From a virus: a stretch of DNA of 64,000 bases. Position numbers and translations under genes: made by a program. This document shows, piece after piece, positions 31,298 through 44,799 of the stretch (position 1 is the stretch's first letter; each line of letters begins with the position of its first letter). The notes beneath the pieces are model-generated. The model was not told where the DNA came from and ran no database searches. It saw nothing but the letters and a program-made list of their open reading frames with translations. The stretch spans positions 96,001 through 160,000 of the IMG/VR virus record IMGVR_UViG_3300037336_000025. One strand, given 5' to 3'.

Positions 31298-31327
31298 ACT
31301 ATATTTACCGTAACGATAAATACTTGT
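31298..31327. promoter_or_regulatory. Back-to-back divergent late promoters
   Basis: Minus-strand TAAATA at 31302-31307 with ATG at 31297; plus-strand TAAATA at 31317-31322 with ATG at 31328. Confidence 0.75.
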
Positions 31328-32083
31328 ATGAGCCAAATAGATATTACCAAACAAAGCGTTTACGACTACTGTAAAGCCATGCTGGGTGACGGCATGATTG
31401 ATATAGAGCTAGATCCTATCCATTACGAAACTGCGCTAACACGCAGTTTAGCAGTATTTCGACAACGTGCAGATAATGCTGTTGAAGAAAGTTACATCTT
31501 TTTGAATCTTGAAGAAGATCAAAACGAGTATATTTTGCCAAAAGAAATACAGGTTGTCCGACAGATTTATCGTAGAACTATTGGTTCGCGCACAGGCGGA
31601 GGAAGCGGCGGTACCGTATTTGAACCGTTTAACTTAGCCTACACAAATACCTATTTGTTATCATCAACAAACATGGGTGGGCTAGCAACATACGAACTGT
31701 TTGCAGGCTATCAAGAAATGGTTGGTAAGATGTTTGGATCTTTTATTAACTTTAATTGGAATCCACAAAACCGTAAACTAACAATTCATCAACGTCCTCG
31801 CACTCAAGAGTCAGTTATGTTGTTGGTTTATAACGTTAAACCTGATCACGCAATTATCGAAGATACGTATGCAGGACAATGGATTAAAGATTACACCCTT
31901 GCTAATTGCAAAATGATGCTTGGTCAAGCCCGTGAAAAGTTTGCCAGCATTGCAGGTCCGCAGGGCGGCACAGCGCTTAACGGGGCAGCAATGAAAGCTG
32001 AAGGACAATCTGATATGGATAGACTAAGTGAAGACCTTAAGACTGGTATTACTACACAAGGTTGGGGATGGGTGATCGGATAA
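31328..32083 (+). CDS. gp13: Neck protein (T4 gp13-like)
   Basis: YCKAMLGDGMIDIEL...V.QI.R...WIKDYTLANCKMMLGQAREKFASIAGPQGGTALNG. Confidence 0.8.
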   Translation: MSQIDITKQSVYDYCKAMLGDGMIDIELDPIHYETALTRSLAVFRQRADNAVEESYIFLNLEEDQNEYILPKEIQVVRQIYRRTIGSRTGGGSGGTVFEPFNLAYTNTYLLSSTNMGGLATYELFAGYQEMVGKMFGSFINFNWNPQNRKLTIHQRPRTQESVMLLVYNVKPDHAIIEDTYAGQWIKDYTLANCKMMLGQAREKFASIAGPQGGTALNGAAMKAEGQSDMDRLSEDLKTGITTQGWGWVIG

Positions 32084-39977: not shown

Positions 39978-40565
39978 ATGAAAACTTTTAAAGAATATCT
40001 TGCTGAAAGCAAAAAAGCATACCCTTTTAGAGTAAAAGTCGCAGGCGAATTGCCTAAGGATTTTGAAAAAAAATTAAAGGAAATGCTCGGGGCAGCTAAT
40101 CCAACAATCATTGAAAAGTCTAAAACATCTGCTCAAGCGATTCCGTTGGATTTCCCAGAACTTGCAAACATGGAAGTGTACACATTCGAAGTGGTTTGTG
40201 AATATCCAATTACTGCACCCGAACTTGCTGTACACGTTGGCCACTTAGTGCCTGAATCTAATTTCAGAGTGCGTAACGGCGGCGACCCAGCTGAAGCAGA
40301 ACATGCTACATTTGACCTAGACCCTAGCGGTGAAGCAGTACTAGATGAAGCAGAGTACAAAAATGAAAAAATTAAACACAAAGATTATTTTGGGGATGAT
40401 TTTAACAAGAGTTTCTTAAAAGATTTAGAGAAAACGGCTAAAGCCCGTAAGAAAGAAGACGGTGTTGGGGAATACAAATTACCTAAGGCAAAACAAGACA
40501 AAGCTGGATCTATGGCTCCTATGAGCAAGATTAGTAATCCAGATCCACTTAAAGGAAAAGTATAA
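39978..40565 (+). CDS. Hypothetical head-associated protein
   Basis: The MKTFKEYLAES start is typical of T4-like internal or head proteins processed after xxE sites (inference). Confidence 0.5.
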   Translation: MKTFKEYLAESKKAYPFRVKVAGELPKDFEKKLKEMLGAANPTIIEKSKTSAQAIPLDFPELANMEVYTFEVVCEYPITAPELAVHVGHLVPESNFRVRNGGDPAEAEHATFDLDPSGEAVLDEAEYKNEKIKHKDYFGDDFNKSFLKDLEKTAKARKKEDGVGEYKLPKAKQDKAGSMAPMSKISNPDPLKGKV

Positions 40566-41371
40566 TGGATTTTAATAAATTAATGCAAACAATGCGTGAC
40601 TTAGATCGCCCGGTCAGTAACGTAGCAGTAGAAGCCTGCGGTGATTCTATGATGAGTGGAATGATGCCCCCAATGTCATCTACTCCTGCAGTAACTCCAC
40701 CATCAATGAGTGTTAATCTTAATGCACAAGGTATGGACAGCATTGAAAGTTTACTAAAGTTAATGACTAAAGTAAATCCGGATATGATCAATCAACCAAT
40801 GCCTAGTTTAACTCCTCCTGGACCTAGCATTGCACCTTTAAGTTTAGGTAATCTAGATAAAGGTCCGTTGAAGATGTTACCAGACTTTGATAAAGCAATG
40901 GGCGACCAAGATGGTGATGGTGATCACGACATGGACGATCACGATATGGAGAAAGATGAAGGCCATATGGACGCTATGCAGAAAGCAATGGGTGACCAAG
41001 ATGGTGATGGTGATCACGACATGGACGATCACGATATGGAGAAAGATGACAGTCCAATGGACGCTATGCAGAAAGCAATGGGCGACCAAGATGGCGATGG
41101 TGATCACGACATGGACGATCACAAGCTAGAAAAGAAGATGCGTGATAAAGAAAAAGACGAATCATACGCAAACGAGCCAGATCCTGAAGTTAAAAGTGTT
41201 GACTATATGAACAACCAATTAGCCGGTGGCATGAATAAGCCTAAAGGAACACATCCTAAAGTGGCTGGCGGCGACAACCCAATGAACCGTGTTAGAGAAG
41301 GCACCGACCTACGTGCTAGTATCCGTGCAGAACTATTACAAAGATTAGCAGAAGCTAAGGGAGCAAAATAA
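40565..41371 (+). CDS. Acidic protein with Asp/His/Met-rich tandem repeats
   Basis: Three KAMGDQDGDGDHDMDDH units. Confidence 0.7.
   Translation: MDFNKLMQTMRDLDRPVSNVAVEACGDSMMSGMMPPMSSTPAVTPPSMSVNLNAQGMDSIESLLKLMTKVNPDMINQPMPSLTPPGPSIAPLSLGNLDKGPLKMLPDFDKAMGDQDGDGDHDMDDHDMEKDEGHMDAMQKAMGDQDGDGDHDMDDHDMEKDDSPMDAMQKAMGDQDGDGDHDMDDHKLEKKMRDKEKDESYANEPDPEVKSVDYMNNQLAGGMNKPKGTHPKVAGGDNPMNRVREGTDLRASIRAELLQRLAEAKGAK
40892..41123 (+). repeat. Near-perfect coding tandem repeat, 90-bp unit, about 2.6 copies
   Basis: AAAGCAATGGG(C/T)GACCAAGATGG starts at 40892, 40982 and 41072. Confidence 0.92.
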
Positions 41372-41868: not shown

Positions 41869-42507
41869 ATGGCAAAATCACTAGACGGTAATTTAATTAA
41901 GAAAGCACATGCTCCGATCCGATACACGTTAGAGGAAGTTAAGCATCTTGAAGCATGTATGCATCCGGTAGACGGTCCGTTATACTTCTGTAAAAACTTT
42001 TTAAAGATTCAACATCCTGTACGTGGATCGATTAAGTTTGAACCGTATGAATACCAAGAGAGGCTAATACAGTCATACCACAACTACAAACAGTCTATTG
42101 GTATGCTGCCTCGTCAGATGGGTAAGACTACTTGCGCTACGGGATATTTACTATGGTACACAATGTTTGTGCCAGAAGCACAAGTATTAATTGCTGCTCA
42201 TAAGTACGAAGGTGCGCAGGATATTATGAATCGTTACCGATTCGGTTATGAGAACTTGCCCGACTTTATTCGTGCAGGTGTATACAGCTACAACAGAAAC
42301 ACAATTGAATACGACAACGGCGCACGTATTCAAGCAACTACTACAACAGAAAACACTGGTCGTGGTAAGTCTCTATCTCTAATTTATTGCCTAGATGGAG
42401 ACACTACTACGGTTCGAGTTCGAAGTAAATTAACATTAGTTGAAGAGGATATAACGTTGACTGCGCTGTATGCTAGGCTAAACAGCAATGCTAAAATTAT
42501 CGAATGA
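41869..42507 (+). CDS. terL: Terminase large subunit N-part (173 aa) fused to split-intein N fragment
   Basis: YQERL adenine-binding motif, PRQMGKTT Walker A, TGRGKSLSLIY, then CLDGDT; ends 39 aa later. TAAATA at 41858. Confidence 0.93.
   Translation: MAKSLDGNLIKKAHAPIRYTLEEVKHLEACMHPVDGPLYFCKNFLKIQHPVRGSIKFEPYEYQERLIQSYHNYKQSIGMLPRQMGKTTCATGYLLWYTMFVPEAQVLIAAHKYEGAQDIMNRYRFGYENLPDFIRAGVYSYNRNTIEYDNGARIQATTTTENTGRGKSLSLIYCLDGDTTTVRVRSKLTLVEEDITLTALYARLNSNAKIIE
42388..42504 (+). mobile_element. Split intein N fragment (IntN, 39 aa)
   Basis: Block A CLDGDTTTV starts at TGC 42388, exactly at the Walker B Cys position; includes EEDITLTALY. Confidence 0.88.
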
Positions 42508-42521
42508 CGAGTTCGCATTTG

Positions 42522-42529
42522 TATAAATA
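42522..42529 (+). promoter_or_regulatory. Full T4 late promoter TATAAATA for the HNH gene
   Basis: Exact TATAAATA, 4 nt before ATG 42534. Confidence 0.75.
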
Positions 42530-42533
42530 CTGT

Positions 42534-44799
<2,266 letters not shown>

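Follow-up and report, generated by a model that had tools for sequence, protein, structure and literature searches.

A copy of the homing target half-site ahead of a free-standing endonuclease gene in a split-intein terminase locus: a candidate autorepression operator

Atypically split inteins of the AceL-TerL type combine a very short IntN with a long IntC and are inserted in terL, as is the intein described here. The studies of this type known to us deal with splicing chemistry, and the DNA between the intein halves was not their subject. Homing endonucleases need to be held at low levels to spare the host. To our knowledge, self-repression through a mimic of the target has been demonstrated experimentally for I-TevI only. 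In the td intron of phage T4, the I-TevI operator matches the homing site at 15 of 20 positions, overlaps a late promoter and mediates autorepression, as outlined in a review of the system (Edgell et al., 2004, reviewed in PMC2988022). The operator itself is left uncleaved, the cleavage determinant being missing, and I-TevII and I-TevIII share the same layout (PMC2988022). In the same review, no effect on viability is reported for removal of the I-TevI operator from T4, and late promoters lie inside translation-blocking hairpins for I-TevI, segB and Aeh1 mobE (PMC2988022).

The locus described here lies in a window of 64,000 nucleotides, the whole stretch of DNA that was analysed, which is part of a 186-kb viral record. 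In this record, terL is found in three ORFs (Table 1). The IntN ORF (41869-42507) ends with the codons ATC GAA TGA. The arrangement is that of a fractured gene, with ORFs on the same strand in which SLSLIY is followed by Cys1 and SHQ by CDEFAFV, sequences that are joined in relatives. The homing endonuclease gene (HEG) is located between the intein halves, and its 3' end overlaps the start of IntC (43396) by 23 nt. The intein insertion point falls within the Walker B region of TerL. For the atypically split TerL inteins, the defining features used were an IntN under ~40 aa, an IntC of >100 aa, Cys1 and Cys+1. With an IntN of 39 aa, an IntC of 112 aa and both cysteines, the intein can be assigned to this class on its sequence. 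In the contiguous relatives L090 and L108, the IntN sequence runs on into IntC.

Table 1. Features of the fractured terL locus, in window coordinates.
Feature	Position	Strand	Database match
TerL N-extein, residues 1-173, C-terminal SLSLIY	41869..42387	+	Pfam Terminase_6N E 3.7e-8; PHROG terminase families
IntN, 39 aa, Cys1 to IIE, with TGA stop 42505-42507	42388..42507	+	
Copy of the target 3' half-site: T + six DEFAFV codons + TAA	42505..42526	+	
TATAAATA, T4-type late-promoter motif, 4 nt 5' of the HEG ATG	42522..42529	+	
Predicted weak RNA hairpin over the HEG AUG	42518..42538	+	
Free-standing homing endonuclease gene (HEG), 294 aa	42534..43418	+	phrog_5104 E 3e-16
Long IntC, 112 aa, C-terminal SHQ	43396..43731	+	
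Cys+1 + genuine DEFAFV codons (Walker B region), the half-site mimicked by the copy	43732..43752	+	
TerL C-extein	43732..44799	+	PHROG terminase large subunit E 2.6e-82

The organization closely follows that of the fractured genes described by Dassa et al. (2009; PMC2677866), which include a terminase from Lake Gatun. In both cases, IntN, a free-standing endonuclease and IntC are located on one strand, the terminase intein has an unusual split point that results in a long IntC, the 3' end of the endonuclease gene overlaps the start of IntC, and TATAAATA is present in the endonuclease leader. The overlaps between endonuclease and downstream ORF in those genes range from 6 to 69 bp (PMC2677866). 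In contrast, the endonuclease is HNH-like here, while the types described there are GIY-YIG and Vsr-like. In a term search, Dassa et al. (2009) were not found to mention any copy of extein sequence in the leader, and the terminase is absent from their list of hosts with hairpin-bearing endonuclease leaders (PMC2677866).

The N-terminal ~135 aa of the HEG product are common to all cassettes, and the C-terminal half is HNH-like. The protein has 133 relatives. An invariant HIDH ... N ... N pattern is shared by 13 homologues, and phrog_5104 matches residues 163-249. Searches against Pfam found nothing even at E 10, and a profile search of PDB sequences likewise found nothing. The AF2 model (pLDDT 81) yielded only weak fold matches, such as the GVE2 HNH protein (Z 3.5, rmsd 6.4, 82 aligned), and structure searches with Foldseek and VIA-align returned only weak rows and no significant match. 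Lacking a Pfam or significant structural match, the enzyme is therefore called HNH-like on motif evidence only. No other inteins or endonuclease paralogues were found in the genome of the window.

Directly after IntN, DEFAFV is encoded at positions 42506-42523, in frame +1 relative to the IntN ORF, and TAA comes next (42524-42526). As the sequence-only reading of this DNA had pointed out, these are the residues that follow Cys+1 (43732-43734) in the genuine C-extein, at 43735-43752. The copy shares 13 of 18 bases with its own C-extein, and its differences affect five of the six codons, all synonymously, which was also as claimed. Moreover, its 18 coding bases are identical (18/18) to the natural intein-less allele of L049. 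A chance match was rejected: when all six frames of the 186-kb genome were searched, the DEFAFV at 42506 was the only recurring hexapeptide of the first 40 C-extein residues, and none of 60 shuffled genomes contained such a repeat. At its 5' edge, the copy agrees to within 2 nt with the intein insertion point. At its other end, the TAA is one change away from the Gln codon CAA of the target, the bases beyond the Val codon match the Gln-Pro codons of the target at 6/9 positions by eye, and the last two bases of the copy fall within TATAAATA. By inspection, the tail of IntN has no likeness to the N-extein side of the target beyond TGT.

The T at 42505 had been described as an extra base and flagged as a possible assembly error. 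An error was rejected, since assemblies made independently from different metagenomes agree on this base, with the T found in 17 of 18 independent lineages. This T does form the TGA that stops IntN, together with the GA that opens the copy, but a better reading makes it the last base of a TGT (Cys) codon, and this codon precedes the copy in full in L102, L105, L110 and L126. The ATG at 42504 is present and shares the frame of the HEG ORF, but is not conserved as a start: the spacer of relatives differs by 1 nt, which places a stop in that frame. The real HEG start is at 42534.

To examine conservation, a search with IntC yielded 37 loci and one with the endonuclease yielded 10 loci, from which 18 non-redundant lineages with a HEG of ~294 aa formed the conservation set. 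Although the HEG proteins of these lineages are only 47-89% identical, the ATG is preceded in all 18 by a block consisting of T, the six DEFAFV codons and TATAAATA, so that DEFAFV-like coding after IntN, which the earlier reading had proposed to look for in relatives, is indeed retained. The block takes the form T (often GT or TGT), GAY RAR TTY GCN TTY GTA, TAAATA and a gap of 4-5 nt. Its mean pairwise identity is 0.88, compared with 0.56 for the last 48 nt of IntN and 0.63 for the first 60 nt of the HEG. In the 18 copies, all six wobble positions vary and 10 of the 12 other positions are invariant (p ~0.0015 by the hypergeometric distribution for all six wobble positions among the eight variable ones, on our own count). 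Of the two non-wobble positions that vary, one turns the Glu codon into Lys in four lineages and the other is changed in L112. The positions that differ among the copies also differ among natural targets, and the lineage L112/116 is the only one with a Leu (TTG) target and also the only one with a G there in the copy. At the wobble positions, the copy shows no correlation with the C-extein of the same locus (2.22 vs 2.40 of 5, n.s.), and ongoing gene conversion between the two was rejected for want of a signal.

Presence of the copy follows the state of the endonuclease gene. It is absent from the HEG-less intein alleles L085/086, L090-092 and L108/109; in L085/086 (L085:2716-2881), the intein is still split and the IntN stop overlaps the IntC start. 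In L100/101 (L100:1545-2261), an internal deletion starts at position 16 of the copy and reaches into the HNH motif, TATAAATA is gone and a dead 3' remnant of the HEG is left. Conversely, the copy is kept in L001, L126 and L127 despite a different C-terminal nuclease domain joined to the same N-terminal ~135 residues and IntN. This combination points to the swapping of domains or modules within the cassette. In these three loci (L001:5666-6589, L126:4001-4759 and L127:4001-4781), the C-terminal domain is unrelated in sequence and possibly Vsr-like, and the IntC end of L001 is also different, with TKN before Cys. More distantly related, long-form HEGs of 412-488 aa (L128-L131) are likewise located in fractured terL genes and possess neither the copy nor TATAAATA. 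They carry an N-terminal extension of 120-190 aa with repeated motifs, and no trace of the copy was found inside them. Their ATG overlaps the IntN stop or lies within a few bases of it, which suggests translational coupling in place of a promoter of their own. The HEG homologue of the Salicola phage SCTP-2 also lacks the copy. Given these absences, the copy is not essential to the endonuclease family.

The promoter component of the block was evaluated by a census of the genome. TATAAATA is found before the HEG in 17 of 18 lineages. In the whole genome it has 10 sites, where ~20 would be expected, and at least 6 of the 10 are located near ORF starts in non-coding DNA, which makes up 6% of the genome. 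Its core, ATAAATA, is similarly depleted, with 37 sites against ~70 expected. Eleven of these 37 are followed after 4-12 nt by an ATG with an open frame of 60 or more codons, and in eight the distance is exactly 5 nt, compared to 0.3 in shuffled genomes. No permuted heptamer came near the ATAAATA count before ATGs. The ATAAATA-N5-ATG starts include those of the portal and other structural genes. Overall, the motif has the properties of a gene-start signal, for which the simplest explanation is a T4-type late promoter that yields leaderless messages, and the HEG start conforms to it. Its distribution suggests that leaderless late transcripts are general in this phage. Because the signal recurs at gene starts, the earlier proposal that the Val codon and stop of the copy form a TATAAATA promoter holds, in so far as the motif fused to the copy is promoter-like in this census. 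Within the window, ATAAATA at 31316, 37586, 44799 and 49563 leads to ATGs at 31328, 37598, 44811 and 49575, respectively. The portal start is thereby placed at ATG 44811 and not at TTG 44796.

The leader may also fold. A hairpin is predicted in which an inner stem pairs 42518-42525 with 42531-42538 and an outer stem pairs 42506-42513 with 42544-42552, so that the Phe-Val-TA bases are set against the AUG region and the outer stem reaches HEG codons 4-6. Of the hairpin cells, 79% are paired, compared with 25-52% in slid controls, and the inner helix reaches 87%. The folding z-score is -2.2 in the window and ranges from -6.1 to +0.1 in other lineages. RNAalifold found no consensus structure across the lineages and no covariation was detected, 150 of 500 shuffles reaching the observed score. 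With both results null, a conserved RNA structure was rejected, and what remains is a weak hairpin that is conserved in sequence. A leader hairpin that hides the HEG AUG is therefore plausible but weak as a prediction.

Comparison with intein-less relatives indicates how the copy came to this locus. Among the closest TerL-N relatives in viral contigs, 79 of 80 have an uninterrupted SLSLIY-CDEFAFV junction. One of these 79, the intein-less sibling L002, has 99-100% identity with the window across ~10 kb, in almost all bins of 100 columns (window 41869-44799 was compared with L002:1-10522; L003 and L004 are further siblings). Near the junction, the differences between L002 and the window are clustered within ~20 nt to each side of the insertion point, in the final ~18 nt of the N-extein and the initial ~15 nt of the C-extein. 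This pattern looks like a very recent homing event with short co-conversion tracts; none of the loci compared has the flanks of the donor. The copy differs from the resident allele of L002 at 4 of 18 bases and from the copy in the cassette of L082 at only 1 of 18. Given the near-isogenic sibling and the closer L082 copy, the copy is best regarded as cargo of a mobile cassette, and the IntN-endonuclease-IntC cassette, copy included, is considered to have come by recent homing. The same two comparisons contradict the proposal that the copy is a fossil of how this phage's own terL was fractured, and a local scar of that kind was rejected.

How the copy first arose is a separate question. Since its edge coincides with the insertion point and the adjacent bases resemble the Gln-Pro codons, it is reasonable but unproven that the copy represents target DNA captured when the short-form cassette arose. 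If so, the 5' edge of the copy would mark the end of the break, TATAAATA would have evolved inside the captured Val-Gln-Pro codons, and the variable and invariant bases of the 18 copies would be a natural read-out of the DNA specificity of the enzyme. A broader idea, put forward tentatively and with some doubt, is that endonucleases of fractured genes may come to regulate themselves by taking up a fragment of the target that they cut. If this were general, target mimics would be expected in the leaders of many free-standing endonucleases. As a test of generality, a short query for the gp41-1 fractured gene gave no match among cultured phages.

For the function of the copy, the preferred reading, to which an even chance may be given, is that it is a homing half-site mimic overlapping a late promoter that acts by analogy with I-TevI as an autorepression operator, supplemented by a weak AUG-sequestering hairpin. 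According to this operator model, the copy would be a conserved cis-acting leader of the cassette, built from or mimicking the 3' half of the target. It supplies the stop of IntN in most lineages, and its last bases join TATAAATA 4-5 nt before the ATG. Judging from the genome census, TATAAATA would drive a leaderless or near-leaderless late HEG transcript. The endonuclease would bind the half-site copy through the N-terminal module, which is a natural candidate for the binding domain because it is common to cassettes with different nucleases. Only the C-extein half of the target is copied, and the cleavage determinants on the N-extein side would therefore be absent. If the analogy with I-TevI applies, the copy would escape cutting because it lacks the N-extein half, and the bound endonuclease would occlude its own promoter, thereby keeping endonuclease levels low. 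In transcripts that read through from terL-N, the copy is tentatively predicted to pair with the AUG region, which may lower translation further.

The operator model is favored because the copy occurs in all 18 short-HEG lineages and with a different nuclease domain in three, because the block is better conserved than either flank, because its frame relative to IntN varies, and because its variation, which covers all wobble positions and includes the G of L112/116, matches the natural variation of targets. Loss of the copy with loss of the HEG, its decay with HEG decay, the promoter census and the precedent of I-TevI also favor it. On the other hand, the stop codon, promoter and hairpin can explain part of the conservation, and the period-3 variation could reflect past exchange with target DNA. 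These elements, specifically the stop, the promoter and the inner hairpin, explain some of the invariant bases but not those in the first eleven positions of the copy. Furthermore, since removal of the I-TevI operator had no reported effect on viability, conservation as strong as that seen here is not predicted by the I-TevI precedent alone.

A translated product of the copy was the second alternative offered by the sequence-only reading, which took the synonymous changes as a sign of past protein-level selection and envisaged a tail that mimics Walker B. In this scenario, a +1 frameshift or readthrough would add DEFAFV to the TerL-N-IntN protein, where it might act as a Walker B mimic or modulate splicing. 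The period-3 variation of the copy and the stop context TGA-C or TGA-T are compatible with such a tail, and in one lineage (L113-115), the only one in which the copy is in frame and translated, IntN does end in DEFAFV. That part of the proposal stands. However, 14 lineages have the copy in the +1 frame, while L102, L105 and L112 have it in frame but preceded by a stop, and a frame that varies in this way across lineages argues that selection is not on the peptide. Slippage is also unlikely, because the codon before the stop varies (GAA, AGG, GAG, AGT, GGG, GTG or ACA) and no slippery codon is conserved across the lineages, as a programmed +1 frameshift site of the prfB type would have. In L093 and L110 a stop located a few codons upstream interrupts the +1 frame, in four lineages the Glu codon is changed to Lys so that DK is encoded in place of DE, and no conserved ORF covers the frame of the copy among the lineages. 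A translated tail thus appears highly improbable as the function of the copy, and the selection is judged to act on DNA or RNA and not on a protein tail.

Two further explanations operate at the nucleic acid level. The copy might be a co-opted fossil without protein binding, a captured piece of target kept only because it ends IntN, provides the TATAAATA promoter and forms the 5' side of a hairpin that would hide the HEG AUG on read-through transcripts, the arrangement known from I-TevI, segB and Aeh1 mobE. The TGA made by the copy in 14 lineages, the conservation of TATAAATA, the pairing of the inner helix together with z-scores of -2.2 to -6.1 in several lineages, and U/C changes opposite the G of AUG that keep the pairing are all in line with this explanation, as is the finding that 15 of 16 endonuclease leaders of fractured genes have TATAAATA hairpins (Dassa et al., 2009; PMC2677866). 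Yet in half of the lineages folding is no stronger than in shuffled sequences (z -0.9 to +0.1), both tests for a conserved structure were null, and the invariant copy positions 1, 2, 5, 10 and 11 lie outside the well-supported inner helix and the promoter. In addition, the other ATAAATA-N5-ATG sites of the genome have no upstream sequence in common with the copy. A co-opted fossil is accordingly a possibility to be held with some doubt. Alternatively, the copy could be refreshed from the target or pair with it during homing, and may help the cassette to move or rearrange. The concentration of variation at wobble positions that also vary in natural targets would fit such recapture, as would the L112 copy, which follows the Leu codon of its target, and the modular nature of the cassette, in which the HEG C-terminus and IntC have been swapped in L001. 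Recapture is nevertheless improbable, given that the wobble states are uncorrelated with the C-extein of the same locus, that the Glu-to-Lys codon of four lineages cannot derive from a working terL, that if the broken end of a target paired with the copy, the product would lack IntN and presumably be dead, and that 18-22 nt is short for strand invasion.

The closest known system is I-TevI. Both systems have a sequence like the homing site just 5' of the endonuclease ORF, here with 13/18 bases shared with its own C-extein and 18/18 with the L049 allele, and this sequence overlaps a late promoter in I-TevI and the promoter-like TATAAATA motif here, with a hairpin over the translation start that is predicted in the present case. 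I-TevI is a GIY-YIG enzyme encoded in a group I intron. By contrast, a free-standing gene within a split intein encodes the present endonuclease, which is HNH-like, or possibly Vsr-like in some cassettes. The half-site is almost exact (18/18 with a natural allele, compared to 15/20 for I-TevI), and the mimic also makes the stop of the upstream IntN; repression here is proposed by analogy. As with Aeh1 mobE and T4 segB (PMC2988022), a late promoter would lie in a hairpin that limits translation of a free-standing endonuclease. These genes keep a ribosome-binding site, whereas the gap between motif and ATG is 4-5 nt here, and the present leader differs further in that it copies the target. As read from the sequence, this would be a modified form of a known regulatory design, with an endonuclease family and a genetic context that are both new for it. 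An I-TevI-like layout would then exist in an unrelated endonuclease, within the split intein of an essential packaging gene, and be kept through deep divergence. The copy offers a testable case together with a free prediction of the target bases read by the enzyme, which would be useful for characterising or re-using the endonuclease or the atypical TerL split intein.

The natural forms of the locus represent a full homing cycle in one gene: empty, freshly invaded, with a decaying HEG, split without a HEG and re-fused. The last of these are the contiguous mini-inteins at L090:3857-4052 and L108:719-944, which keep the Met of IntC, in L090 with a 3' remnant of the HEG, and look like split inteins re-fused by deletion. 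In SCTP-2, a cultured jumbo phage (L132; MF360958.1 215233-222132), the HEG homologue lies directly 5' of the annotated terminase ORF, which begins with an IntC of the same family, then has CDEFAFV and, apparently, a second, contiguous intein further in. No TerL-N gene adjoins this ORF, and so the N half must be elsewhere in that genome. Lastly, just 5' of the terL region in the window, a 268-aa ORF (40565-41371) encodes three near-identical acidic, His-/Met-rich repeats (DGDGDHDMDDH... units).
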